DNA from: Marinicella sp.
GTDB lineage: Bacteria; Pseudomonadota; Gammaproteobacteria; Xanthomonadales; Marinicellaceae
Assembly (NCBI GenBank): GCA_965230295.1
Contig: OZ246001.1
Location: forward strand, 2,464,001 to 2,528,000
Direction: 5' to 3'
DNA length: 64,000 nt
Within the stretch, counting starts at the first letter, position 1; every line of letters begins with the position of its first letter. The notes under the pieces are model-generated. The model saw nothing but the letters and a program-made list of their open reading frames with translations, searched no databases and had not been told where the DNA came from. Made by a program: the position numbers and the translations under genes. Shown piece by piece: positions 37,730 through 50,002 of this stretch.

Positions 37730-38065
37730 ATGGCAAAGAAAACTCATTTGGATCATGTGTTTATGGCATTGGCCGACAAAACAAGACGTGATTTGGTTCA
37801 CTCACTGGCGGATTCCGAGATGACCATAAGTCAACTGGCAGAGGGGTTTGATATGTCATTGGCAGCAGTATCGAAGCACATCAAAGTGTTGGAAAAAGCC
37901 AAGCTTGTGAATCGCCGAATTGAAGGGCGTATTCATTACATCAAATTGGTTCCTGAGCAATTAACAGGGGCATTAGATTGGATCACCATTTACCAGAATT
38001 TTTGGGGAAATAGGTTAGATCAATTATCAAAAGTCATAGATCAAGAAGAGGATAAAAATGATTAA
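37730..38065 (+). CDS. ArsR/SmtB family regulator
   Basis: F.ALAD.TRR, S..AVSKH.KVLE.A.LV, W..RLD.L. Confidence 0.93.
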   Translation: MAKKTHLDHVFMALADKTRRDLVHSLADSEMTISQLAEGFDMSLAAVSKHIKVLEKAKLVNRRIEGRIHYIKLVPEQLTGALDWITIYQNFWGNRLDQLSKVIDQEEDKND

Positions 38066-38477
38066 GTTAAACATCAAAGAAGAATTCAACACCTCTGTAG
38101 AAAAGTTATATACAGCCTGGAGTAACGAGGAATTAGTGAAGCGGTGGTTTGGCCCGGCGGATGACATGATTGTTCCAGAAGCCAAGTTGGATGTGGTTGA
38201 AGGCGGCCACTATCGGATTGTCATAGAGAACAGTGCAGGGGAACAGTTTATAGTCGGAGGCACCTATAAGGAAGTGATCCCAAATAAACGTTTGGTTTTT
38301 AGTTGGCAATGGGAAAACAGTCCAGTCATAACAACAGTGGAATTGAATTTTACCGCTTTGTCAGACCAGCGATCTGCACTTGAATTGATCCACACTGAAT
38401 TTGAGGATCAAGAAAGCTGTGATCATCATATGCAGGGATGGGGTGGTTGTATCGCTAAGTTGCCAAAGGTATTTTGA
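38058..38477 (+). CDS. SRPBCC/AHSA1 domain protein
   Basis: AW......WFGP, GG.YRI, RLVFSW.W, H..GW; usual ArsR partner. Confidence 0.9.
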   Translation: MIKLNIKEEFNTSVEKLYTAWSNEELVKRWFGPADDMIVPEAKLDVVEGGHYRIVIENSAGEQFIVGGTYKEVIPNKRLVFSWQWENSPVITTVELNFTALSDQRSALELIHTEFEDQESCDHHMQGWGGCIAKLPKVF

Positions 38478-38505
38478 GAGAACAATTCAACAAGAGGAAT
38501 CAACA

Positions 38506-38889
38506 ATGAAATATTCAATAATTTTAATTTTAGTGGCTTTGCTTCAATACATTTATTTCACTTTTAGAGTCGGGTTAAGCCGCGGTAAATATGAAATTCA
38601 CGCACCAAAAACTGTGGGTCATGAAATCTGGGAAAGGATGTACCGGGTCCAACAAAACACACTTGAACAGTTAATCATTTACATCCCCGGAATGGTTTTG
38701 TTTTCAATGTATGTCAGCGAAAAATGGGTGGTTATTCCCGGGGTGCTTTATATCATAGGTCGTGTTGTCTATTCATACCTATACATCGCAAACCCAGAGA
38801 AACGAGCGCCTGGAGTTTTTCTGAGTTTTTTCAGCAACATCGCCCTGGTGGTAGGTGCTTTAATTGGTGTGATCCTTTCTTTACAGTAA
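38506..38889 (+). CDS. MAPEG family protein
   Basis: R.KY.I.AP, ER.YRVQQNTLEQ; GAGGA SD. Confidence 0.9.
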   Translation: MKYSIILILVALLQYIYFTFRVGLSRGKYEIHAPKTVGHEIWERMYRVQQNTLEQLIIYIPGMVLFSMYVSEKWVVIPGVLYIIGRVVYSYLYIANPEKRAPGVFLSFFSNIALVVGALIGVILSLQ

Positions 38890-38913
38890 AAGCCATTCAA
38901 TTGCTTTCGTACC

Positions 38914-38951
38914 GCAAGTAGGTTGGGCTGAGCTTTGCGATGTCCAACATG
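38914..38951. repeat. GTAG-type REP element, copy 1
   Basis: GCAAGTAGGTTGGGCTGAGCTTTGCGATGTCCAACATG. Confidence 0.8.
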
Positions 38952-39106
38952 TAGGTGTTTAGATGAATTGTTACCAGCAGATAGGCAAAGTGATCGGGCT
39001 TTTTATGGGTTTGAAAAACTTAGGTTTGTAACGAGATAAATCTATTGACCGACAATATTTGATTCAGTCAACGATCCTTTGTGATTTACATTAAGTGGGT
39101 TAGGCT

Positions 39107-39418
39107 TCAGTCGTGATTGCCTCGTATATGACTTACAAATCTGTATATTGCGATTGCGCCGCCATCAATTATTGCCCCGGCGAAGAACCCAAAAATCAAG
39201 CTTGGTAAAAATACATCGCCACTGCTTTCAAACCAGAGTAAGCCATTGTTAAATTTGAATAACAGTTGAGCAACTACAACAGAAATCATCATGCTCACAA
39301 TAATGGCTATGAATTGGAACAGGTTATCTTTCTTTCGAACATTAACCCCAGTGATGTTATCTGAAACCATATTGTAAATATGTTTTCCAGTCATTTGCTG
39401 GTCCTTATTCTGACTCAT
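39107..39418 (-). CDS. membrane hypothetical protein
   Basis: two TM helices, YN.VSD.ITGVNVRKKDNLFQ. Confidence 0.7.
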   Translation of the reverse strand: MSQNKDQQMTGKHIYNMVSDNITGVNVRKKDNLFQFIAIIVSMMISVVVAQLLFKFNNGLLWFESSGDVFLPSLIFGFFAGAIIDGGAIAIYRFVSHIRGNHD

Positions 39419-39674
39419 GGGTTTTCTTATTAGTTGAACCAAACATACTTTTATCCTTAAACCAGTAAGGTGCTTTTCCTTTGAAAGCAGTGTAACAAAA
39501 TAGGTAACTTGCACATCCAACGAAGGGTGTAACAAAAAGTAAATATGCATTACCTTCGGCCAGTATTGTATAGAGTTGTGACTTAAATGCCATAAAGAAA
39601 ATCAAACCAGATAGGCCAAAAAAAATGCGGTCAAACACCGAGTACTGTTTGTTGATATATCCTTTGTCGTTCAT
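39405..39674 (-). CDS. membrane hypothetical protein
   Basis: two TM helices, overlaps the next ORF; start uncertain. Confidence 0.55.
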   Translation of the reverse strand: MNDKGYINKQYSVFDRIFFGLSGLIFFMAFKSQLYTILAEGNAYLLFVTPFVGCASYLFCYTAFKGKAPYWFKDKSMFGSTNKKTHESE

Positions 39675-39795
39675 CTCAACCCTATGTAATACGATATCAA
39701 TAAACATATCACAACGATGGTTGGTTCGTAAGTGATAGAAGTAATACTGCGATGGCAAAAATTAAATACCACGTCTCATAATCAATTTTCCTTCA

Positions 39796-39833
39796 GCAAG
39801 TAGGTTGGGCTGAGCATTGCGATGCCCAACATG
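39796..39833. repeat. GTAG-type REP element, copy 2
   Basis: 36/38 identical to 38914-38951. Confidence 0.8.
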
Positions 39834-39867
39834 ACGATGTTTGGCTTTTCTGGTGAGATTTTTCTAT

Positions 39868-39887
39868 AGATGGTGCCCGGGGACGGA
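39868..39887. repeat. att core, distal copy (duplicated tRNA-Leu 3' end)
   Basis: identical to 48533-48552. Confidence 0.95.
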
Positions 39888-40101
39888 TAGTAACAGATTT
39901 GTAACTTATTGATATATATTAATAATAATTACATAGATGAAATGTTACCAACATAATTACCAACATTAACACAAAGTGACCGGTCTTTCTATGTGTTCGA
40001 GAATTTCAGTTTTTTTGATGCATTAAAACGAATGATTGTCTTTTATTGTTCGTGAAAACAATTGTAATAATGAGAAGGAATTTGTATGAAACTTGATTAA
40101 T

Positions 40102-40731
40102 TCATTCTGAAGTTGTGTCTTGTTGATTCTTCTTATTAGTTTTAATTTTCTTTTTCAGGTCCTTAAAGAGTGTATTATGAAATTTCAATATATCATGGCC
40201 TGATTTAATATGTTTTCTAATATTCTTCAATTCTCCTTTAATTTGTTTGTTGTTATAGTCAATTGAATTAGATTCCATTATTTTTTTAATTCTATCGATA
40301 GATAATTCTAGTTGTTTTTTTGAGTTAGCATGAGCAAACTCTCTTGCTCCAACAAGCTCAAAGTAAAGCTCAGAAGTTTTATCATCACTTTTACAATTTA
40401 ATGCTAGCACCACTGAAGAATATCCCCTTGCATAATGTTTAGATCTTTTTACTTCTTGTATGTACTCTTTTTTTACATCTATTAGTTTGTCATCTACTAT
40501 TTTTTTTAATTCTACTTGCAACTTCTTGATCTCATGATTGTTTAGTTTCCATTGAATAATTTGAATTACAATTGGCATCACAACTCCCATCAATGCAAAC
40601 ATTGTTACAGTCATTGTAAATAAACTGCTAAATGATTCTGAATAAAAAGTGTGTACTGTGTTTAATATTTCTAGAGAGCTTACATCTTGGTTGGGTTTTC
40701 CAATCACTTCATTAAACATTTGCTTTTCCAT
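40102..40731 (-). CDS. island cargo: single-TM protein with coiled/helical C-terminus
   Basis: AT-rich ORF, TM 'LFTMTVTMFALMGVVMPIVIQII', Lys-rich helical tail; start taken at MEKQ. Confidence 0.7.
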   Translation of the reverse strand: MEKQMFNEVIGKPNQDVSSLEILNTVHTFYSESFSSLFTMTVTMFALMGVVMPIVIQIIQWKLNNHEIKKLQVELKKIVDDKLIDVKKEYIQEVKRSKHYARGYSSVVLALNCKSDDKTSELYFELVGAREFAHANSKKQLELSIDRIKKIMESNSIDYNNKQIKGELKNIRKHIKSGHDILKFHNTLFKDLKKKIKTNKKNQQDTTSE

Positions 40732-40886
40732 TTTCAATAAATTAACTTGTAGATAAGGATATAACATCATTGTTGCAATAGGTATAAAAAATGATATCAA
40801 ATTGAAACTGGCTTGCCAGATGGGGAGTAATATCAACCACTAACAATAATGTGGCAAATTTCCAACAACTAAAGTACGTAGCCATT

Positions 40887-41843
40887 ATGGATGAAGAACC
40901 AATATTACTAATTTCAAAATATTATGACATTAAATCTAAAGAATTAATTGCGAAACCCGAGTGGGCAAAATTTGCAAAATCTGCCGAGAAGGTTAGTACT
41001 TTGATTCACAATGACGATGCTAGATCAGATATTAGATTTAATGCGATACACTGGGCATTAGATGTTATTAGTCTTTGTCGTCAAATTTGTTATGGGAACT
41101 GTTGGCTGGGTGCTTACTCAGGTTTTTATAAAGATCATGTAAAAAAAGGAGATTTGCCATCTAATGTTGATTTTCATACCACTTATCATGTTGATAATAC
41201 AATCACTCGAATTAGTTCGGTTAGGGATAAATTAGGACTCATGATATGGGCATATTATTGTGCTTTTAATCCAGAGAAAAGAAAAGAAGTACTAATTTAT
41301 AAAGAAGTTTACGACAGGATGAAACATCCTTCCAAGTATGAAATAAACTCTAAAATACCCAATGTTTTCATAGAAAGTTTAGAAAGGCTCAATGAAAGTA
41401 GTTTTGTCAACTTGATAAATTACAGGCATGCAAAAATTCACAGACTTGAACCAAGGGTAGAAATTTATGGTGTGGAAAAACATCATGGCTTACCTTACAA
41501 AGTTCAATTAAAAACTGAAGAAGAAATTGAAGCGTTTAGAAAGAGTATAAAAGAAAAATTTGGAACTAGTAAGGCAGGTGGTTTTACTCAAGAGGATATT
41601 GAAGCTGGGGTACAAGCAAAATTTATCAGAATGGGCTGGGAACAAGTTGAAGAAAGTTGCACGATAGATGGTGTGATTTATGATGATATTAAACCAAAGT
41701 TAAAGTATTGGAGCTTTGGTGAAATTGAAAGCGAGATAAATATTGTACTACCCACAATTTTAGAGGTTTGCACAAAATGTTTTGAAACACTGTTAGGTTT
41801 AGAACCATTTATCGATTCCAAATCACAGGAGTTGAATAAATGA
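40887..41843 (+). CDS. island cargo: HEPN-like protein (Cthe_2314-like)
   Basis: R-x4-H motif (YRHAKIH) preceded by helix DNTITRISSVRDKL; start may be 40851. Confidence 0.65.
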   Translation: MDEEPILLISKYYDIKSKELIAKPEWAKFAKSAEKVSTLIHNDDARSDIRFNAIHWALDVISLCRQICYGNCWLGAYSGFYKDHVKKGDLPSNVDFHTTYHVDNTITRISSVRDKLGLMIWAYYCAFNPEKRKEVLIYKEVYDRMKHPSKYEINSKIPNVFIESLERLNESSFVNLINYRHAKIHRLEPRVEIYGVEKHHGLPYKVQLKTEEEIEAFRKSIKEKFGTSKAGGFTQEDIEAGVQAKFIRMGWEQVEESCTIDGVIYDDIKPKLKYWSFGEIESEINIVLPTILEVCTKCFETLLGLEPFIDSKSQELNK

Positions 41844-42541
41844 CTTGGAAGATTAAAGACTTAAGAAATATGATTCCAAAATCCCATGAGAATTACAAAC
41901 AGATCAATGAAGTATTAGATTCAATAAGTAGATTGCTTCAAATATATGTTTACCACAATGAAAGAGCATATATTTCATATGAATCTTTAAAAGAAATGAT
42001 TGACGAAGATGAGCTTGATTTTGGTCGATACATTGAATTTGTATTTCGTGAAGTTTCTAGTGATGAAAGAATTGATTTTGATCTCACTAGGCTAGAGCAT
42101 CAAGCAAACATAATTTCTGCAATTAGCACAGTTCGATCAGCCTATGAGTATTTTTGCATTTTAGTGAATATATTAATTTTGAATAATGAAATTGAGATAA
42201 AACAATGTAATATCTATACGGTAACAAGAAAATTAACAGATTCACCTCTAAAAATTGAGTTAGAACAAATTTCGCAATCTGAGTGGTTTCAATACATTTC
42301 TCATTTTAATAATATCATTAAGCATAACTATTTAATTAAAGAACAATTTACCTATGATTTGGAAGAAAATAGATCTGGAAGCAGCTTTGATTCTTTTAAA
42401 TATATAGATAGACATGGAAATTATTCTTATGAAAAGAGATGGTCAATAGATGTATTAAAGGGAGTGTTGAGTGTTAAAAATAAAGTTATACTCCTTGGAG
42501 AGTTATTGAATGCTCAATATAAAAATTTAATTGAATCTTAG
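41840..42541 (+). CDS. island cargo: second HEPN-like protein with degenerate motif
   Basis: ATGA overlap with the upstream gene; VRSAYEY helix and WFQYISHFNNIIKH (N-x3-H, Arg absent). Confidence 0.55.
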   Translation: MTWKIKDLRNMIPKSHENYKQINEVLDSISRLLQIYVYHNERAYISYESLKEMIDEDELDFGRYIEFVFREVSSDERIDFDLTRLEHQANIISAISTVRSAYEYFCILVNILILNNEIEIKQCNIYTVTRKLTDSPLKIELEQISQSEWFQYISHFNNIIKHNYLIKEQFTYDLEENRSGSSFDSFKYIDRHGNYSYEKRWSIDVLKGVLSVKNKVILLGELLNAQYKNLIES

Positions 42542-42583
42542 AATTTGGGAATCAGGTTAAATATTATCAACTTTTCGAACAAC

Positions 42584-43170
42584 TACGCGCGCGTGTACAT
42601 GTGTAAAAATTCATTGACTCTATAAAAAAACTGGAGTTTTCTTACATAGTAAAAAAAGGGCAAAGGAAATAATTTTTCACTCCATAAAAAGAAAACAGGT
42701 ATTAGTTTTCGGAGTCCATAAAAAAAGAATTTGAATTTGACTTTTGCATGTCCTTAAAAAGGGATAAATATCGAATTTTTACAGTCCATTAGAAGTCGTC
42801 AAAAACTGACTATTCGGGCTCCTTAAAAAAGAGACATTCAAAGCAATTTCTGGACCAGTACGCGCGCGTGCGCGTACATATGCAAAAATTATCTGGTTTA
42901 ATGGAAAAAAGCTGAGTTTTCTTACACTATAAAAAAGGAGGTAAATTGAATTATTGCACCCCTTAAAAAGGTCAAATAAAATAATCCTTTCACTCCAAAA
43001 AAAGGATAAAAGATCAGTTTCTTTAGTCCATAAAAAAGGATCAAGTATTAGTTATGTCAGTCCTTAAAAAGGCTCGCGCGCGTACTGGTCGCAAAACTCA
43101 ATTGTTATCCTTTCGCGTACTGGGTGCAAAAGTCTTTGTTTTTCCTTATGCGTACTGGTCACAAAAGTCA
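42584..43170. repeat. non-coding array of 33-36-bp degenerate units with a 275-bp higher-order duplication
   Basis: TCCWTAAAAA-type cores at 42681, 42715, 42751, 42785, 42820, 42926, 42960, 42994, 43027, 43061; CGTACTGG at 43081, 43116, 43151. Confidence 0.9.
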
Positions 43171-43457
43171 TAAGGTTTGATCTGTTTTTAGTAAATACGG
43201 AGATTTAGAATTGTGGCTTTGCGGCGAATATCTTTCATAGCTGGTTGATGGATCAATGAACCAACTATCTTTAATCGTTTTTTGATTTATTTTTTTGGAA
43301 GTGATGGGTTAGACATCATATTGAATATCAAACCCACCACCAGTAGCTAAGTAGTTAGCTTTTTATTACCTGCTATTTTTAATCCTAAGGTAAATTTGGT
43401 TGCCATCGTTATACGCTGCAAACCTTTATAAACAATGGCTTTCAAGCGTATTTTAAG

Positions 43458-43498
43458 TAGCTCTAACTGTAGCTTTAGCTCTAACTAAAGCTTTAACT
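43458..43498. repeat. short iteron-like direct repeats
   Basis: TAGCTCTAACT at 43458 and 43476, AAGCTTTAACT at 43488. Confidence 0.6.
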
Positions 43499-43516
43499 AA
43501 TATAAATGAGTGTTTT

Positions 43517-43978
43517 TTAAATTAATTCAATTTCTGTGATTCGAGAATAATGCATCTGTTTGGGTAATTCTTCGCGTTTATAGTTTATGGTTACGTCTTG
43601 GACTTGAATAGTGAATAAGCTTTGTTGCAATTTGCTTAATGGCACTCTATCAAGCCTTACTTTGGGAGATGTTGGGTTAAGTCGATAGAACAGAGTGATT
43701 AGGTCGCCGCGAGAAGAGGCGATAAAGCCCCCACGTTCTCTGGTCTTTCCTTTGTGTCTTTTAACATTAAAAAATGCTGGCATATGAACGCCGAAATATT
43801 CGCCCATATCTACAATTGAAAACATCAATACAATTTTCGCTTGTGTCCTGAACCGGTACGTTACCCATGTTTGAAAAGTAGCTTCATACTTACCAGGTGG
43901 AATGTGTAACCAGTCATCATATTTAAATTTAGCCAACTTAGCATCAAAGGGTTTAGGCATTGCGATTACATTACCCAT
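43517..43978 (-). CDS. island protein, possibly OB-fold/SSB-like (DUF669-like start)
   Basis: IPPGKYEA followed by beta-rich pattern; overlaps the upstream HTH gene. Confidence 0.6.
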   Translation of the reverse strand: MGNVIAMPKPFDAKLAKFKYDDWLHIPPGKYEATFQTWVTYRFRTQAKIVLMFSIVDMGEYFGVHMPAFFNVKRHKGKTRERGGFIASSRGDLITLFYRLNPTSPKVRLDRVPLSKLQQSLFTIQVQDVTINYKREELPKQMHYSRITEIELI

Positions 43979-44279
43979 GATTAACACCCTGAGAATGTCC
44001 TCTAGCAATGTGATCAATGTACAAGCCTGGCATCAATACATACTCAGCAACAAGGTGCGGTGAGCCGTCTGGAGTATGATCGACTCGCCTGTTAGTAATG
44101 ATGTTAAGCCTCTCATCATGCCTTAATTCAAAGATACGTGGAGCAGGGGAAACAATGTCTAGCAATGCTCTGGCCTGCAACGTAGTTATCTTGCCATGCT
44201 TATACAAATACTCTCTTAACCTTTGCCTTTGAGCAGCGGTGGAAGTAGAATTGGGTGGCTGCGCTGTATTATCTTTCAT
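43971..44279 (-). CDS. winged helix-turn-helix protein (HTH_39-like)
   Basis: QRQRL..YL...G.ITTLQAR..L.I..PAPRI.ELR. Confidence 0.8.
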   Translation of the reverse strand: MKDNTAQPPNSTSTAAQRQRLREYLYKHGKITTLQARALLDIVSPAPRIFELRHDERLNIITNRRVDHTPDGSPHLVAEYVLMPGLYIDHIARGHSQGVNHG

Positions 44280-44704
44280 AATGGTTTTACCTCGTGGTGG
44301 TTTGAAAAAACATTAAGCGCGTCTTGATTGCCGTCTGGTCGCGCTTTCTTATTTTGGTAAGGTCGTAAAGCCCAAAGTGGACATGCAACGATACCGCAAT
44401 TCCTGATTTCATCTGATGGATTTGGATCAAAGCCACAACCAACACAATCATAACATTTGGCATTGATGGCCAATCTCAAGCTTGTTGGTTTATCTAGGGC
44501 TTTTTCTATGGGTGTCTTGTTTTTATGTAAACCCATCGAATAGGGGGTCTGACAGAATTGTCTTTTCGACCCTGTAGGGTAGCCTACCTTATGCCCTGTA
44601 ATTCCTGTGGGTGTGCCACCACGGCATGTTAAACAGGGAAAATTTTGATTTTTAATCATAGTTCTTGCTCCTGGTGATAATAAATTGATTAATTCTTCTT
44701 CCAT
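44276..44704 (-). CDS. Cys-rich putative Zn-binding phage-type protein
   Basis: AINAKCYDC...EIRNC...ACPLW..RPY; ATGA overlap with the HTH gene. Confidence 0.7.
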   Translation of the reverse strand: MEEELINLLSPGARTMIKNQNFPCLTCRGGTPTGITGHKVGYPTGSKRQFCQTPYSMGLHKNKTPIEKALDKPTSLRLAINAKCYDCVGCGFDPNPSDEIRNCGIVACPLWALRPYQNKKARPDGNQDALNVFSNHHEVKPL

Positions 44705-44833
44705 ACTGTCCTTTTAATAATTTTTGAATTAATAATCGTTTCTCCACTTAACGTGGCGCTAATTATTTACGTAAACATTAATCACTCTTCTTCTGTACTA
44801 CGAATTTAATATTTTTATGCGAAAGTAAACAGG

Positions 44834-45025
44834 TCAACTTGCTTGCTTTTGCCTATTGATAAAATCCATGAGTTCGGCGTGATCATAGCCAACGGCGCGT
44901 TGACCAATTTTGATTTTACGGGGGAAGTTGGGATTAGTCTTAGACCATCTGTCCAAAGTACTTTTGCTGATTCCAAGAATAGCCGCTGCTTTAGCTGGGC
45001 GGTCGACCTTTGATGTTACCTGCAT
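44834..45025 (-). CDS. alpA: AlpA family excisionase/regulator
   Basis: LGISKSTL.RW....FP..IKIG.RAVG....E...FI. Confidence 0.9.
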   Translation of the reverse strand: MQVTSKVDRPAKAAAILGISKSTLDRWSKTNPNFPRKIKIGQRAVGYDHAELMDFINRQKQAS

Positions 45026-45184
45026 TTTTAGCTCCTTAATGTTGTTAATGGAGCTTTATGATTGCATCAAAAAAAATGTCTATCAAGAGTAAGATGTTGA
45101 TAAATATGGTTTTTTGGGTGGTATATTAAAATGCTGGGTAAATTCAGATAGAAAGCTGGGTATAGAGTTAAAATTCTTAGGAGC

Positions 45185-46222
45185 CTATTTTTTTATTCCA
45201 AGCCCTAACATTACCTTTGACTGGCTAATAGCTTTATTTAACAGCCCTTCATATGTAGATTTTCCTCTAATTGGGCTTTCAATGATTTTAGTAGAGAGGT
45301 TTGAGTTTAAAGATTTGATGATTTCTTCACAAAGTTTATTTTGACTTAGTTGACATTTTCCGGAATTTTCTATTTCTTCATTAAGTAAACACATTAATGA
45401 ATAAATCATCATTTGATAGTTTTTTTCAGTTGGAGTAGATATTACTTTATGCTTTCTCTTTAAACTTTCCTTCACAACCTTAGAAAAATCATATTCAATT
45501 CCAAATGACTCAAATAATTCTATTAATTTATTTTTCTCATAATATTTTTTGATTATTTTCTCTTCATAAAATAGTGTAGTAGTTAATTCACCTGAAATTT
45601 GGTCTTCTAATGTTTTTTTGTCAAAAATTCTTCGTCTATAAATATCATATGAAAACTTATGTGAATCAACAACTTCTTCCGCAATAGATGAATAATCATC
45701 AATAGACTCATATGCAACTTTTTCACTACTATCTGTGATTATATTAAAGTCGTGTAAAGAACTTTTTGTGATTATTTCTTTAGCAAGTCCTGAAAAATAA
45801 TATTTAAGAATTTTTTTTGGTTTTTTACCATTTATGTAACAATGTTGTGATGGAAGAAAATACAAAATACTTAACATTTGTTCGTCATCAGAACTGTCAC
45901 GAGTTAGCTTGTTTACTTGTTGCCCTTTAATAAAAAAGAAACTATCTTCATTAAATTCAAAAAAGCCTTTTAAATAGAATGGATTTGAATGGTTTTTAAT
46001 TAGAAAATTATTAAGAGAACTTAGGTATTTACCTTTTTTTCTCTTGTGAAGCTCTAGTTTACTTGGATCGCTTAATTCAACTAAATTTAGCACCCCGTCA
46101 AAATATATCAAATATGAAAAGTTTGAGTTGATTTTTTCGAAATCATCACGAGTTAACCTTGTGATCTTTTCGATTTCATTTCTATCAAAAAAATAGTTGT
46201 TATCAAATTCAATCATAACCAC
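45185..46222 (-). CDS. island hypothetical protein with C-terminal HTH-like region
   Basis: 345 aa, very AT-rich; C-terminal SQ..L.E.I...GKST....L.KA pattern; directly upstream of alpA. Confidence 0.75.
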   Translation of the reverse strand: MVMIEFDNNYFFDRNEIEKITRLTRDDFEKINSNFSYLIYFDGVLNLVELSDPSKLELHKRKKGKYLSSLNNFLIKNHSNPFYLKGFFEFNEDSFFFIKGQQVNKLTRDSSDDEQMLSILYFLPSQHCYINGKKPKKILKYYFSGLAKEIITKSSLHDFNIITDSSEKVAYESIDDYSSIAEEVVDSHKFSYDIYRRRIFDKKTLEDQISGELTTTLFYEEKIIKKYYEKNKLIELFESFGIEYDFSKVVKESLKRKHKVISTPTEKNYQMMIYSLMCLLNEEIENSGKCQLSQNKLCEEIIKSLNSNLSTKIIESPIRGKSTYEGLLNKAISQSKVMLGLGIKK

Positions 46223-46327
46223 CCTTTCTCGTGATTTCTTTCAAAATAAGGAACCATGCCAAGGCGGTGAAAGTGCCCGCTTTTCGGTAGCTATCCTATG
46301 GCATGGCTGTTGCTCAATGATTATATT

Positions 46328-46831
46328 CTAAGCTGTTTTGTAAGCTAGATTAAATAAATCACTTTTGCGTTCTTCAGAATTGTTGGCAATTATTTGAGGT
46401 AATTGATTAAAGGCTGTTTTGATATCCTTGATCATTGTTCCTGCTCCAAACAATATGTCTAATACAAGGTCGCTACAATCGATATTTTCTAGTTGACCTG
46501 TAACAATGTTAATTCTATTTTCTTGCTTTTTAAGCATTGACAAAAGTTCTTCATGCAAATCCATGACTGCAGCAGCCTGGCCTATAGTTAGTAAATCCGT
46601 TGTTAAAGCTTCATAGCAGTAGATTTTTTTATACATTTTTTTCAATCCCTTAGTTTTGAAAAGCCTTTTGCCTTTGTGTTTAGTTTTACCAAGTTGAATC
46701 AGTACGCCAATGTAATTCTTAATTGATAATAATATACATTGAGAATCACTATATTTGAGTAACTCAGTACGCTGAGACTCCAAATCTTTTGCATGAACCA
46801 TTGTTGAGGTGTTTGTTTTTGTTTTATTCAT
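46328..46831 (-). CDS. island hypothetical protein
   Basis: helical ORF, GGAGG SD, overlaps the upstream ORF. Confidence 0.7.
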   Translation of the reverse strand: MNKTKTNTSTMVHAKDLESQRTELLKYSDSQCILLSIKNYIGVLIQLGKTKHKGKRLFKTKGLKKMYKKIYCYEALTTDLLTIGQAAAVMDLHEELLSMLKKQENRINIVTGQLENIDCSDLVLDILFGAGTMIKDIKTAFNQLPQIIANNSEERKSDLFNLAYKTA

Positions 46832-47090
46832 AATTGCCTCCAAATCTATTTGACTCATATTCAATGGCATTCATGGCGCATGACATAGCGGCAACCATAC
46901 CAGCATGGGCATCTTTTGAAATTTCTATATGGCTACCATGATGGTTGTTTAAAACAAATTCATGGATAAATGAGAGCACGCTGTTAGCAATAGCCAGTGT
47001 GTCCTCTGGTTTGGTGCATATAATGCTGCACTTCGTTAGGTCTGTTTCTTTTTTCTTGATATCTATTATTTTTCCTGTTGTTGTGGACAT
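46824..47090 (-). CDS. island hypothetical protein
   Basis: 88 aa with GGAGG SD. Confidence 0.7.
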   Translation of the reverse strand: MSTTTGKIIDIKKKETDLTKCSIICTKPEDTLAIANSVLSFIHEFVLNNHHGSHIEISKDAHAGMVAAMSCAMNAIEYESNRFGGNYE

Positions 47091-47131
47091 GATAATGCCT
47101 CCGGTTTAAAGGTTAATTGAACAAGTGACCA

Positions 47132-47160
47132 CCTGGGAAGGTTTACGCGTGTTTCCCAGG
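47132..47160. terminator. hairpin downstream of the integrase
   Basis: CCTGGGAA-N12-TTCCCAGG. Confidence 0.45.
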
Positions 47161-47182
47161 CGGGCTTGTGCCAATCAGCTGA

Positions 47183-48382
47183 TTAGTTATTACGATGAAT
47201 AGGTATGATCTTTTCGCCTTTGTTGAGGACGAAATCAGACCAAAACTGCATCATCTTAATTCTTTCTACGATGTACTCCGCTTTGTTGTATGTGCCTCGA
47301 ATGGTGTTCTTGTCTTCGTGGCTGAGTTGTTTCTCTATGAATCGGCTATCAAAGCCCAATTCATTCAATGTGGTTGATGCCAGGTGTCTAAAGCCATGCA
47401 CGGTCATACGTCCCCGAAAACCCAATCTATATAAGGCAAACAGCATGGCGTTTTCACTGAACGGTTGTTTGTTAGGTTTATGGTAACTGGCAAAGATAAA
47501 AGGATAATCACCTGTGACGGGCAGCAAGTCTTTGAACAGCTGTAATGCTTGATTGCTCAATGGCACCACATGTTCGCGCTTCATCTTCATTCTTTCCGCT
47601 GGTATCGTCCAAGTGGCAGCTTCAAAGTCAATCTCATCCCAAGAGGCGTATCTAATCTCGTTGGTGCGTTGAAAAGTGAGTAGGGCGATCATCAAGCCAG
47701 TTTTGGTGGTTGGCTCAAGGTCACCATTTTCTATGGCCTTGATTAACTCTGGTAGCTCCTTATGCGTGATGTGGTTGTAGTTTTTGGCGTGGTGCTTACG
47801 GGTTTTGATGCCCATAGTTGGATTGCCCTTAACTGTGCCTTCAGATATGGCGAAGTTGAATATTGAACTGATGCGCTGTTTTACTTTCTTCTGTAGTTCA
47901 GTTTTACCGGCATCTGCCAACTTATCTAAAACTACTTTGATTTCTGGTGCGCCGAGGTTTTCTATTTGTTCTTTGTCAACGTACGGGAAAACGTGTGCAT
48001 GAAGTGAACGCCATGTTTTATCAGCATGGCCGTCTGACCATTCGCCATCGGCAATCATTTCCTCATGCCATCGCTTAGCCACAGATTGGAAACTGTTTAC
48101 TCCAGATGACTTTATTCTTTTCTCTTTTCTGATTGTGGATGGATCGATACCTTGTGCTATCAATTTCCTGGCTTCATGTACTTTGTCTCTGGCATCGGCT
48201 AATCCAACATCGGGATAAACGCCCATAGACAAGGTTTTCTGTTTGCCCTCAAACCTGAAATTGAAACGCCACCATTTAGAGCCATTTGGATTGATGATCA
48301 TAACCAGACCGTTACCATCAGTTTTCTTATATGGTTTTTTCTCTGGTTTGAATGAATTTAGCAGTGTGTGATTCAGTTTCAT
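47183..48382 (-). CDS. tyrosine integrase, P4/IntA type with arm-binding domain
   Basis: DG.GL...I..NGSK.W...F...GK...L..G.YP arm domain; catalytic R (QRTNE), K, HGFR, LSH, Y (GTYN) all present. Confidence 0.97.
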   Translation of the reverse strand: MKLNHTLLNSFKPEKKPYKKTDGNGLVMIINPNGSKWWRFNFRFEGKQKTLSMGVYPDVGLADARDKVHEARKLIAQGIDPSTIRKEKRIKSSGVNSFQSVAKRWHEEMIADGEWSDGHADKTWRSLHAHVFPYVDKEQIENLGAPEIKVVLDKLADAGKTELQKKVKQRISSIFNFAISEGTVKGNPTMGIKTRKHHAKNYNHITHKELPELIKAIENGDLEPTTKTGLMIALLTFQRTNEIRYASWDEIDFEAATWTIPAERMKMKREHVVPLSNQALQLFKDLLPVTGDYPFIFASYHKPNKQPFSENAMLFALYRLGFRGRMTVHGFRHLASTTLNELGFDSRFIEKQLSHEDKNTIRGTYNKAEYIVERIKMMQFWSDFVLNKGEKIIPIHRNN

Positions 48383-48535
48383 GATGTTGGTAATTTATTG
48401 CCTACCAACAATGTTACCAACAAAAGCAGTGCGTTGTAAAGATGACTTATGACACCTTATGAAGCCTGAAAGCCAGCAATAGCTTAGGGTTTGGTGTGAA
48501 AATGATGCTTTATGAGGTGTTGTGGATATAAGAGA

Positions 48536-48622
48536 TGGTGCCCGGGGACGGACTCGAACCGTCACGGTATTTCTACCGGGGGATTTTAAGTCCCCTGCGT
48601 CTACCAATTTCGCCACCCGGGC
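48536..48622 (-). tRNA. tRNA-Leu(TAA)
   Basis: 87 nt, long variable arm, anticodon TAA, CCA end; integration target. Confidence 0.98.
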
Positions 48623-48860
48623 TTTTTTGCTGGCCCTTTCTTTGTGAGTTCAGCAATTTATGCGTCGGCATTGATTCGAGCACATGAGTGCACTCATCAA
48701 TGACCTCCTTGACCTTGCTAAACTCATTTTGAAAGAGCCTAGCAAAAAACACTACTGAATGTTCTTTCCTTTTTGCTGATGGTAGTCAGCAACTTGTGAT
48801 GGGGCACATGTGTGTACTCACATCGCTATCCTTGACTTTGATAACCTCACTTTGAAAGGG
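48623..48860. repeat. two related long palindromic (ERIC/REPIN-like) elements
   Basis: ~127-bp imperfect hairpin 48623-48749 centred on GAGCACATGAGTGCACTC; diverged second copy centred on GGGCACATGTGTGTACTC. Confidence 0.7.
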
Positions 48861-48900
48861 GGTTGTCAAAAAATATTCCTTTTTTGGTTTTACTTTGAAA

Positions 48901-48974
48901 TGGAGGCTGAACCCGGAATCGAACCGGGGTACACGGATTTGCAATCCGCTGCATCACCACTCTGCCATCCAGCC
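48901..48974 (-). tRNA. tRNA-Cys(GCA)
   Basis: 74 nt, anticodon GCA, CCA end. Confidence 0.98.
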
Positions 48975-49070
48975 AGCGCCAGTTTCAAAGGCCTTCCTTT
49001 CGAAAGACGTGTCATTTTCGCTAATTATAGATGGCAAATCAAGCATCTTTGCACAACTAATAATGGGCAG

Positions 49071-49110
49071 AAAATAAAAAGGGCTGTAAATGTTGTGTTT
49101 ACAGCCCTTT
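49071..49110 (-). terminator. intrinsic terminator after tRNA-Gly
   Basis: AAAGGGCTGTAAA/TTTACAGCCCTTT stem with a U-rich tail on the minus strand. Confidence 0.75.
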
Positions 49111-49116
49111 GATGTC

Positions 49117-49191
49117 TGGAGCGGGAAAGGAGGCTCGAACTCCCGACCCCAACCTTGGCAAGGTTGTGCTCTACCACTGAGCTATTCCCGC
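49117..49191 (-). tRNA. tRNA-Gly(GCC)
   Basis: 75 nt, anticodon GCC, CCA end; classic pgsA-Gly-Cys-Leu order. Confidence 0.98.
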
Positions 49192-49204
49192 TTAGAGGAT
49201 GCAC

Positions 49205-49232
49205 ATTTTAGCTTTAATGTGTTTTTTGTCAA
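49205..49232 (-). promoter_or_regulatory. sigma70 promoter of tRNA-Gly
   Basis: minus strand TTGACA, 16-bp spacer, TAAAAT. Confidence 0.75.
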
Positions 49233-49447
49233 ATTATTTTTTGCAGTATTTCGAATTCTTTTTAGTTTGAAGAGTGGTCAAAGCCATCTGATCAATTTTC
49301 GAACTGCGTTCGAAGCCGCATCACGGCCTACGGCATGCCAATATCGCTTCTGGTGCTTAGCTCAAGCCGCAATATTTTCATTGCCTGGCCTATGGATTAC
49401 CCGGTCAAGCCGGGTAATGACGGTACAGGAAAGGATGAATATCCTGG

Positions 49448-50002
49448 TCACTCTTTCATCATTGGCCAGGCGGCTCTTAAATAGACGTACATCGAATACA
49501 GGGTGAGGCCTGCGGCGATGTATAACAACACCAAACCAATGTTGTAGACCGGTAAAAACCACAAATCTGCTTCATACAACAGGAAGCCAATGGCCGTCAT
49601 TTGGAACACGGTTTTGATTTTTCCGACCATGGCGACATTGACAGCGCCACGTTCGCCCAGTTCTGCCATCCATTCACGCAGGGCTGAAATGGTGATTTCA
49701 CGACCAATGATGATGGCTGTGGCAATCATCATTAATATGGTAGGGTGGTCTTGCAACAGGATGATCAGTGCTGTGGTTACGGTTAATTTATCGGCAACAG
49801 GATCCAGGAAGGCGCCGAATTTTGAAAATGTTTTGTGTTTGCGTGCAAAGTAGCCATCCAGGAAATCGGTGATGCTGGCGGCCACAAATACCCAACATGC
49901 CACAAACCTAGACCACTCGAAAGGCAAGTAGAAAAATAAAATCATGACCGGAATCAAGATCATCCTGAGTATGGTCAAGGTATTAGGTAAATGCTTTGTC
50001 AT
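49448..50002 (-). CDS. pgsA: phosphatidylglycerophosphate synthase
   Basis: PN.LT..R, TDFLDGYFAR, GAFLDPVADK, RE..IS.LREWMA. Confidence 0.97.
   Translation of the reverse strand: MTKHLPNTLTILRMILIPVMILFFYLPFEWSRFVACWVFVAASITDFLDGYFARKHKTFSKFGAFLDPVADKLTVTTALIILLQDHPTILMMIATAIIIGREITISALREWMAELGERGAVNVAMVGKIKTVFQMTAIGFLLYEADLWFLPVYNIGLVLLYIAAGLTLYSMYVYLRAAWPMMKE

Follow-up and report, generated by a model that had tools for sequence, protein, structure and literature searches.

Mimicry of cos or pac packaging signals is an established strategy among phage satellites, described for P4, SaPIbov5, EfCIV583 and PLE (PMC11417361). In PLE, a satellite of Vibrio cholerae, 14 bp identical to the pac region of ICP1 are required for transduction, and SaPI and PICI elements are described in the same source as redirecting packaging by means of a satellite-encoded small terminase subunit (TerS) or Rpp (PMC11417361). 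The present analysis concerns a repeat array at positions 42569-43183 of a 64,000-nucleotide stretch of Marinicella sp. DNA (contig OZ246001.1, positions 2,464,001 to 2,528,000; assembly GCA_965230295.1), referred to hereafter as the window. Situated in a small satellite-like island that carries no terminase gene, the array is probably a tandem library of about 17 pac-signal mimics by which the terminases of helper phages would be recruited.

Terminases that recognize several boxes are familiar from the R sites of lambda cosB and from pacL and pacR of SPP1, where two to five boxes of one specificity stand beside the cut site. For SPP1, "multiple points of contact" have been described (PMC9611059). 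The pac site of P22 is a 22-bp asymmetric site within terS, and the rings formed by TerS are mainly nonamers, with octamers and decamers also known (both PMC9611059); a 12-bp consensus of P22 pac is available as well (PMC10996546).

The locus resembles PLE, P4, SaPIbov5 and EfCIV583 as a satellite without a full packaging apparatus that would carry a copy of a helper packaging signal, a description that the array fits by inference. It differs from them in presenting about 17 tandem units of three TerS-matching types, in two orientations and from inside terS coding sequence. With lambda cosB and SPP1 it would have in common a phased series of short TerS recognition boxes, those of the array being putative; however, the boxes of those phages lie in the phage's own genome, whereas the array lies in an island and comprises several specificities. 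For the pac-homologous segment of three TerS families, the best matches in the genome are units of the array, the comparison being with families rather than with the pac site of an identified helper. Most likely, the array represents the same kind of mechanism as the known cases of mimicry and differs from them in its tandem form, in its three terminase families and in its coding-sequence origin. In the full-text literature, supplements lying outside the search, single-site pac mimicry was found and multi-family tandem arrays of pac mimics were not.

Array units and the terS genes of phages

The original prediction described an array of 33-36-bp units nested in a 275-bp duplication and free of open reading frames (ORFs), and most of this description holds. 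All ten cores were confirmed, at 42681, 42715, 42751, 42785 and 42820 in a first block and at 42926, 42960, 42994, 43027 and 43061 in a second, with spacings of 34, 36, 34 and 35 bp and of 34, 34, 33 and 34 bp, respectively. A strict core pattern has 11 matches in the 64-kb window, eight of which fall within 42681-43061. The period also withstood the comparison with shuffled sequence: in the autocorrelation of 42645-43073, the maximum falls at lag 34 (identity 0.46, z = 7.6), as against a 99th percentile of 3.7 for the best z in any of 500 dinucleotide-preserving shuffles, and the blocks taken singly are periodic as well (block 1: z = 5.0 at lag 34; block 2: z = 7.5). The headers that open the two blocks are a genuine, diverged duplication (42572-42656 and 42847-42936, offsets 275-280, 71-81% identity), and no ORF of at least 60 amino acids lies in the array, the sole ORF encoding 40 amino acids at 42922-43044 on the minus strand. 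The proposed span of 42584-43073 is real but too short, as the repeats run on to 43183 in the form of three 35-bp units in the opposite orientation.

In total, about 17 units of three types and two orientations occupy 42569-43183. Nine are of the GAG-TCC-ATA-AAA-AAG type, two to three of the ACT-ATA-AAA-AAG type (type A) and five of the GAC-CAG-TAC-GCG type (type C), three of these five being inverted. Across the units the cores are retained and the spacers have diverged. Block 2 is flanked by a 19-nt inverted repeat, 95% complementary (42853-42871 and 43072-43090), and the GC-rich "TACGCGCGCG" starts of the headers themselves belong to the third type of unit. The 4.0-Mb genome has one copy of the array and no second cluster of the motif. 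The array occupies the gap between the convergent 3' ends of two island genes, those for p166 and for a 233-amino acid protein.

Judged by sequence comparison, each unit is a copy of a terS segment of about 20 bp just past the helix-turn-helix (HTH), encoding F-x-(D/E)-(T/S/Q)-(I/L/Y)-(K/A). Family 1, GP3_package (P22 gp3-like), reads ..GAC-ACT-ATA-AAA-AAG at this point; family 2 reads ..GAG-TCC-ATA/TTA-AAA-AAG-GG, and family 3 reads ..GAC-CAG-TAC-GCG. Searched as DNA, the array gave no match in the phage collection. The commonest unit of the related arrays described below, used as an exact pattern against IMG/VR, gave 15 contigs, and most of the matches, when read in frame, were inside small HTH proteins. 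In four contigs (L026, L028, L036 and L037) the motif lies in a terS ORF at the homologous place, ..(E/V/G)-F-L-D-T-I-K-K-A as read by eye; the ORFs of L026, L028 and L036 score as GP3_package, and that of L037 is identical to that of L036. Two further contigs (L032, L035) have the motif inside other terS-like ORFs, and six (L024, L027, L029, L033, L034, L038) at the N-terminus of a small HTH protein unconfirmed as TerS, L034 being assigned from the motif pattern alone. In the remaining three it is non-coding (L025) or in an unrelated ORF (L030, L031). A two-copy pattern scan of IMG/VR, with at least 118 matches, many of them on giant-virus (GVMAG) contigs, was judged unspecific and set aside.

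Retrieval by peptide pattern, blind to codons, gave 21 family-1 loci with 18 unique coding sequences, and their terS DNA at the peptide, GAG-TTT-TCT-GAC-ACT/G-ATA-AAA-AGA/AAG-GC, is that of the array unit, T-tract included. For family 2 the units themselves served as the predictor: translating the TCC-ATA-AAA and TCC-TTA-AAA cores gave F-x-E-S-I-K-K as the terS peptide to be expected. A scan of IMG/VR for family-2 DNA returned more than 116 contigs, and 53 of the 80 loci examined have the match inside an HTH...W...F-x-E-S-I-K-K-G-K ORF, relatives of which bear the annotation terminase small subunit in phages of Vibrio, Acinetobacter, Salmonella and others. By BLASTP (E <= 0.001), 27 of 67 family-2 open frames match a comparison set of family-1 TerS and P22 gp3. 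Similarly, the GC-rich header starts and the inverted units, which read TTT-CTG-GAC-CAG-TAC-GCG, predicted F-L-D-Q-Y-A, and among 80 IMG/VR loci with family-3 DNA, 43 of 84 matches stand in the TerS context ..F-R-W-L...-F-R-D-Q-Y-A-(K/R)-A...

Position weight matrices (PWMs) built solely from phage terS segments were then scanned over the whole 4.0-Mb genome on both strands (~8 million positions), with an array span of 641 bp for the expectation counts. The family-1 PWM, based on 15 terS segments found by peptide pattern with the contigs found by DNA motif excluded, has its best match in the genome at 42911 (22.3 bits; the next is 19.5), and at 6 bits or more, 6 of its 169 matches are in the array as against 0.014 expected. 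With the family-2 PWM (23 unique segments, codon-blind retrieval), array units take ranks 1, 3, 6 and 8 in the genome, and four of the eight matches of at least 12 bits are in the array as against 0.0013 expected. The top four matches of the family-3 PWM (31 unique segments) are all array units, at 34.9, 21.8, 21.6 and 18.0 bits, and the next match elsewhere scores 13.7.

Along the plus strand, header 1 is opened by a weak type C unit at 42569-42598 (TTT-TCG-AAC-AAC-TAC-GCG; family-3 PWM 8.8 bits, genome rank 21), followed by two type A-like units at 42604-42663. With the family-1 PWM from non-seed segments, the match at 42604 scores 9.1 bits, and the better of the two units, which starts at 42631 and contains TTT-TCT-TAC-ATA-GTA-AAA, scores 13.4 bits (rank 13). 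Five family-2-type units at 42666-42843 carry the TCC-ATA-AAA or TCC-TTA-AAA cores of block 1, and the family-2 PWM places matches in them at ranks 3 (42703, 18.8 bits), 6 (42739, 14.2 bits), 8 (42773, 12.7 bits) and 43 (42808, 7.0 bits). Header 2 is opened by a type C unit at 42844-42873 (TTT-CTG-GAC-CAG-TAC-GCG; family-3 PWM 21.8 bits, rank 2) that doubles as the left arm of the 19-nt inverted repeat, and positions 42845-42888 are 89% identical to the island of a related genome, G012. The best type A unit, GAG-TTT-TCT-TAC-ACT-ATA-AAA-AAG-G at 42911-42943, precedes four family-2-type units at 42945-43073 with the remaining cores of block 2 (42960 to 43061), among which 43015 is the first-ranked match of the family-2 PWM in the genome (22.7 bits). 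On the minus strand, three type C units with a period of 35 close the array at 43070-43183 (TTT-TGC-GAC-CAG-TAC-GCG and variants; 2.7 copies of period 35 by TRF), at family-3 ranks 1 (43070, 34.9 bits), 3 (43140, 21.6 bits) and 4 (43105, 18.0 bits).

In the phage genes themselves, the motif codons are near-fixed at synonymous sites while controls vary, which points to a signal at the DNA level. Among 40 unique coding sequences of family 2, the motif is written with GAG in 38 of 38, TCC in 40 of 40, ATA in 39 of 40, AAA in 40 of 40 and TTT in 36 of 40. Outside the motif of the same genes, Ser is encoded by TCC at 20 of 276 positions, Ile by ATA at 50 of 376 and Phe by TTT at 53 of 189, and Leu and Arg in the equally conserved control peptides FWLKNR, PPDT and GRPT are spread over five to six codons. 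The family-1 motif (18 coding sequences) has GAC in 17 of 17, compared with 56 of 161 elsewhere, together with TTT (18/18), AAA (17/17) and ATA (14/17). For family 3 (54 coding sequences), TAC is used in 54 of 54 as against 34 of 54 at a control Tyr, and GCG in 47 of 54; the GAC preference of this family is no stronger than that of a control Asp. As a separate observation, family-2 terS genes (e.g. L178-L257) hold within ATA-AAA-AAG-GG the sequence A-AAA-AAG, a classical frameshift-prone heptamer, in the frame usual for programmed -1 sites.

The relation of these codons to a packaging signal is anchored in P22. In its record (BK000583), pac is annotated at nt 4-25, equivalent to nt 268-289 of gene 3 and to codons 90-96, EDLSEVV. 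When P22 gp3 is aligned by MAFFT with 24 related TerS proteins, EDLSEVV falls exactly on D-E-F-S-D-T-I. In families 1 and 2 the codons at the homologous place line up with P22 pac, and the island copies lie outside genes. The array units thus correspond to the same codons of a homologous TerS, family 1 and P22 gp3 both being Pfam GP3_package, but the P22 sequence, GAAGATTTATCTGAAGTCGTTA, is single and inside the gene, whereas the array units are multiplied, non-coding and of several families.

Sibling islands and distant relatives

The array is followed on one side by the gene for p166, a core-module protein of the island (43517-44017, minus strand). In a large protein collection it has seven homologues at E <= 0.001 with 92-94% query coverage, the named ones from Marinicella meishanensis and a Xanthomonadales metagenome-assembled genome. 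The p166 loci, five in species genomes and three in metagenomes, share the gene order int, variable genes, alpA, winged-helix (wHTH) gene and p155; no p166 relatives were found in viral contigs. Searching the 44 genomes of the family at the DNA level brought up short stretches of the array in eight genomes besides this one. Tandem arrays of the same motif are present in G012 (L002/L010), G028 (L009/L021), G029 (L008/L020), G035 (L007/L022), G020 (L004/L023) and G018 (L003/L011), with 11-12 units in G028, three in G020 and two in G018; the integrase of the G029 island is broken. The original prediction had proposed a search beside homologues of the island core ORFs; L021 and L023 share with the window the order alpA, Cys-rich gene, wHTH gene, p166-like gene and array. 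Four of the array-bearing loci lie 1.4-6 kb from a tRNA-Leu gene, and the L023 island starts at a tRNA-Arg gene.

Nine islands, the one in the window included, have readable DNA downstream of the p166-like gene; L013 and L014 end at contig ends. A terS gene is present in four of the nine (L010, L012 and L018 with family 1, GP3_package; L016 with family 2) and an array in four (the window, L010, L021 and L023), the two occurring together only in L010. A repeat search found no comparable array past the p166 homologue in L012, L016, L017, L018 or L019. The island family appears to alternate between a terS of its own and an array. In carrying their own terS, the siblings L010, L012, L016 and L018 resemble SaPIs; the island in the window differs from SaPIs and PICIs in having neither a terS nor an Rpp-like protein recognisable by Pfam or PHROGs, and nine queries covering the three TerS families found no match (E <= 0.01) encoded in the whole genome. 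The terS of L016 reads TCC-TTA-AAA-AAG-GG, the exact "TCCTT" variant of four window units. In the G012 array, units of the ACGTTAGA and ACTATAAAAAG types alternate, a single family-2-type unit is present as well, and the island's own terS reads GAC-ACG-TTA-GAG.

In L011, a unit forms the end of a 38-residue remnant of a family-2 terS, and a type A unit comes next, which hints at how such arrays begin. This true remnant also bears on the explanation that the array is functionless debris, the decayed and locally amplified remains of a lost terS gene. Many units are degenerate, and header 2, read in frame by eye, resembles a broken terS (..NY..WKK-A-E-F-S-Y-T-I-K-K). However, a single decayed gene cannot account for about 17 units from three unrelated terS families in two orientations, and the cores have been held while the spacers diverge. 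Arrays are found, moreover, in six genomes from two genera of the family (the two-unit L011 counted) as well as in enterobacterial islands, and debris is left with only a slim probability.

The enterobacterial examples come from three IMG/VR contigs of GC content 0.49-0.53, with two to five units in about 150 bp (L071:4590-4740, minus; L134:290-410; L155:690-760). Their units are of the kinds GACCAGTACGCG, GACACGTTAG and GAGTCCATAAAAAAGG, with up to three types, and lie directly upstream of the isrK, c4-a1b1 and C4 antisense RNAs and an Icd-like gene. As L071 also holds an integrase gene and an int-alpA RNA, the pac-mimic device seems to be present in P4-type satellites too.

The presence of the same unit types beside isrK and C4 antisense RNAs lends some weight to an RNA-level element, that is, a transcript antisense to helper terS mRNA, a helper sensor or a sponge for a protein such as CsrA. 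On the minus strand, that of the island operon, 12-13 units would be antisense to terS-like sequence, and the fold z-scores are -2.8 and -3.6. These z-scores are, however, alike on both strands, and no hairpin recurs from unit to unit in minimum free energy folds. The units run opposite to the island operon in the window and L010 and in the same direction in L021 and L023, and three of the window units are inverted. Promoter-like sites number one as against 5.6 expected, with no terminator, and no Rfam family falls on the array, the matches at E <= 1 within 38000-50000 being three tRNAs, the int-alpA RNA and one chance match. An antisense target would also leave the codon fixation in the phages' own genes unexplained. 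An RNA-level role is thus very unlikely, and the RNA array or CsrA sponge offered among the original alternatives finds no support in the missing Rfam match, the lack of unit-by-unit hairpins or the orientations in the siblings. The minus-strand ANGGA motif behind that proposal is present, but it is the complement of the Ser-Ile/Leu codons TCC-ATA and TCC-TTA.

Several narrower candidates were set aside. A CsrA sponge would present GGA in the loops of repeated hairpins on a transcript; the minimum free energy folds show no such recurrent hairpin, Rfam gave no match, and the orientation of the units varies among islands. A series of sigma-70 promoters or terminators was rejected on the one promoter-like site, against 5.6 expected, and the lack of a terminator. 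A T7/SP6-type promoter array had been considered for the likeness of GACACTATA to the SP6 promoter, until the motif was recognised as part of terS coding sequence.

Further repeats and motifs were noted among these loci. On L430 (1500-2150, minus strand), a viral contig of GC content 0.61, three non-coding copies of TTT-NNN-GAC-CAG-TAC-GCG-CG are each followed by CGCG-rich runs and are possibly an array of the same kind in a high-GC host. Two non-coding units, ..GGACACTATAAAAAGGG and ..CACAACTCGTAAAAATCGG, stand side by side on the viral contig L025 (5300-5400, minus strand; GC content 0.49), some 100 bp upstream of a gene resembling, by eye, a Cys-rich HNH-type endonuclease; these units may be the phage's own extragenic copy of the signal. 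In the sibling islands, a conserved stretch of about 100 nt that starts with GGGTTGTTGTTTAAGTTTGG and continues with a G-run occurs in L012:9160-9250, L021:9600-9700, L020 and, inverted, L023:10770-10800, and sits near the distal end of several islands. It is followed in L021 and L012 by a DnaA-box-like TTAT(A)TCCACA or TTATCCGCA. In G012, a perfect 20-bp palindrome, AACACAAATAAATTTGTGTT, with two half-sites lies upstream of the Fic gene (L010:9590-9680; L002:1100-1190) and is likely an operator.

The host island and its genes

The island spans 8.7 kb (39868-48552, minus strand) between exact 20-bp direct repeats at 39868-39887 and 48533-48552, the latter lying in the 3' end of tRNA-Leu(taa), whose gene is at 48536-48622. 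Its GC content is 28-41% compared with about 45% in the flanks. All of the following lie on the minus strand. A P4-type tyrosine integrase is encoded at 47183-48382 (Pfam Phage_integrase 9e-29, Arm-DNA-bind_3 2e-23, Phage_int_M 1e-20), and an int-alpA RNA motif at 46238-46306 scores 40.9 bits with Rfam RF02996 against a gathering score of 35.8. An AlpA/excisionase-like HTH protein of 63 amino acids (44834-45025) matches PHROG 66, excisionase and transcriptional regulator, at 7e-07 and has homologues in the sibling islands. The core module consists of a Cys-rich 142-amino acid protein (44276-44704) without a Pfam or PHROG family, homologues of which precede the wHTH gene in L016, L021 and L023, a winged-helix protein (43971-44279; Pfam HTH_39, 3.7e-14) and p166, whose true start is likely Met14, giving 153 amino acids. 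Two family-less proteins of 180 and 345 amino acids are encoded as well.

With its integrase, AlpA-like gene, int-alpA RNA and att repeats and no structural genes, the island looks like a phage satellite from its gene content. Terminase, capsid, primase, helicase, Rep and Par families were not found by Pfam or PHROGs among its 10 ORFs. It resembles PICMI as a very small marine island with int, alpA and variable defence cargo that is possibly a satellite of virulent phages. PICMI elements of the Vibrionaceae carry int, alpA and a DUF3987/DUF5906 primase and are integrated beside fis (PMC10803314). Membership of that group was rejected on the grounds that the island has no primase family match and is integrated at tRNA-Leu. 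The array is interior to the island, at distances of 2.7 kb and 5.4 kb from the two att repeats, and on these grounds integrase arm-type sites were rejected too. In the sole public run with the stretch, depth is flat, with no excision or circle joint and no ends; the run is kept as contigs and is uninformative either way, and no RNA run containing the stretch was listed.

The neighbourhood of DNA-binding genes raises the prospect of an iteron-type origin or partition site for an island protein (wHTH, p166 or Cys-rich). Tandem direct repeats of 23 to 35 bp stand in an AT-rich gap beside these genes, and in three islands (the window, L021 and L023) an array comes after the p166-like gene. The AlphaFold model of p166 (pLDDT 73, pTM 0.70) predicts an oligonucleotide/oligosaccharide-binding (OB) fold, and its weak SSB- and PriB-like character would suit such a role; the PDB matches (PrgE, RPA, SSB, PriB) are weak, at E 0.011 or worse, and are not used for the main claim. 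Set against this, no Rep, primase, helicase or Par family was found among the 10 island ORFs, six p166-bearing loci are without the motif, and the unit sequences track the terS variants of three phage families, unlike the site of an island-specific initiator. A better origin candidate is found directly past the p166 stop, where short 12/18-bp tandem repeats lie at 43458-43500 (TRF periods 18 and 12). Counterparts of these repeats, purine-rich with 6/12/18-bp periods, follow the p166-like gene at L021:10290-10350 and L023:9375-9440, and form an element separate from the pac-like array; one might speculate that they serve as an origin or a site for an island protein. An iteron role for the array itself is therefore highly improbable. 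Between the array and p166, at 43300-43346, an imperfect hairpin of the form GTGATGGGTT ... AACCCACCAC was also observed.

On the other side of the array, two cargo genes at 40851-42541 (plus strand) encode a HEPN_Cthe2314 protein of 330 amino acids (Pfam PF18730, 7e-08) and the 233-amino acid protein (phrog_37823). The genes overlap by four bases, have a GC content of 29-32% and are probably a two-gene defence cargo. A third gene on this side, which also looks like cargo, encodes 244 amino acids. None of the three has a counterpart in any sibling island, where the cargo was seen to differ: L010 has Fic, L021 and L022 have RelE-like modules, and L016 has a 496-amino acid HHH_3 protein. The HEPN proteins had been proposed as partners of the array, which is not borne out, as their genes are variable cargo absent from other array-bearing islands.

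A guide-RNA array, CRISPR-like or TIGR-Tas-like, or a type III antitoxin RNA array was also weighed. In length, the unit (33-36 bp) comes near the 36 nt of a tigRNA unit (PMC12045711), but the 10 neighbouring ORFs encode no Nop-domain (E <= 0.1), Cas or ToxN-like protein, and the "variable" parts are T-tract-bearing degenerate copies rather than spacers, the cores being explained by terS codons. The two alternating 8-12-nt repeats with 9-nt spacers of TIGR-Tas (PMC12045711) are not seen here, each unit having one core and a T-tract and no second conserved repeat. Comparison with bioRxiv 10.64898/2026.09.09.750476 likewise found no Nop protein and no dual repeats. A guide or antitoxin array can hardly be what this locus is.

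The likely defence cargo also bears on the view that the array is purely a decoy, in which pac mimics would only soak up or misdirect the helper terminase and the island would not be moved by way of the array. The sequence evidence for TerS mimicry is the same for this view, and satellites are known to interfere with helper packaging (PMC11417361). On the other hand, sibling islands hold terS where others hold the array, which fits self-packaging rather than titration, and the integrase, AlpA and att repeats are the outfit of a mobile element. The two roles are compatible with each other. A pure decoy is considered unlikely. The earlier suggestion that the array titrates a phage DNA-binding protein survives in this form, as a variant of the same mechanism.

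The proposed packaging-signal library and its possible consequences

The preferred reading remains that of a library of pac mimics for helper terminases. Its units match terS DNA, the matching codons are constrained at the DNA level, and they align with the P22 pac site; from this we infer that terminase would bind the array and that the island would be packaged. An incoming helper phage would induce excision and replication of the island, after which the helper TerS ring would recognise the array as the phage's own pac site. TerS would then recruit the large terminase, and headful packaging would start on island concatemers. Many copies would raise the efficiency of capture, and several specificities would let the island use unrelated helpers. 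The array would also divert terminase from the helper and thereby act in defence, the packaging and defence roles not being separable here. Of the DNA sites considered in the original prediction, the packaging site for a helper phage protein is thus favoured, while the origin and centromere are unsupported, as the search for Rep and Par genes was negative and the units correspond to terS coding DNA. The wHTH protein and the Cys-rich protein, labelled a Zn-finger in the original prediction, were suggested as partners and give way to the phage small terminase.

Several points weigh against this reading. Its main weakness is that the helper, the excision and the packaging of the island are all postulated. 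The pac assignment is experimental for P22 alone; for families 2 and 3 it is a matter of homologous position and synonymous-site constraint. Even for P22, TerS gave no measurable in vitro binding to a pac oligonucleotide (PMC9611059). The terS sets, drawn as the best 80 relatives of one query, lack phylogenetic independence, and part of the family-2 constraint could have another cause, namely A-AAA-AAG. Many units are degenerate: four of the nine family-2-type units reach 12 bits with the family-2 PWM, and the unit at 42681 scores 8.0 bits, with the family-1 PWM only. Among the relatives, unit spacing is about 23 bp (some doubled) compared with 34-35 bp in the window, and two of the nine islands, L017 and L019, have neither an array nor a recognisable terS. 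Finally, the enterobacterial units lie in the leader of the P4-type antisense-RNA immunity region and could have a regulatory role instead.

A more ambitious version of the proposal is that the array acts as a "master-key ring", in which mimics of several unrelated TerS families would let one island free of packaging genes ride many helpers; this version is put forward tentatively. The number of units in the array approximates the number of subunits in a TerS ring, at most a suggestive parallel. The enterobacterial P4-type arrays with the same three types suggest that the device is widespread in Gammaproteobacteria.

If the proposal is correct, it would explain how minimal islands without terminase, capsid or replication genes are moved by phages, by way of several helpers, and it would account for the "mystery" repeat blocks of other satellite islands. 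It would also mean that a wide range of headful phages keep pac at one spot of terS, just past the helix-turn-helix. Satellites could then be paired with helpers by matching unit types to TerS families, and both pac sites and helper-satellite pairs would become predictable from sequence alone.

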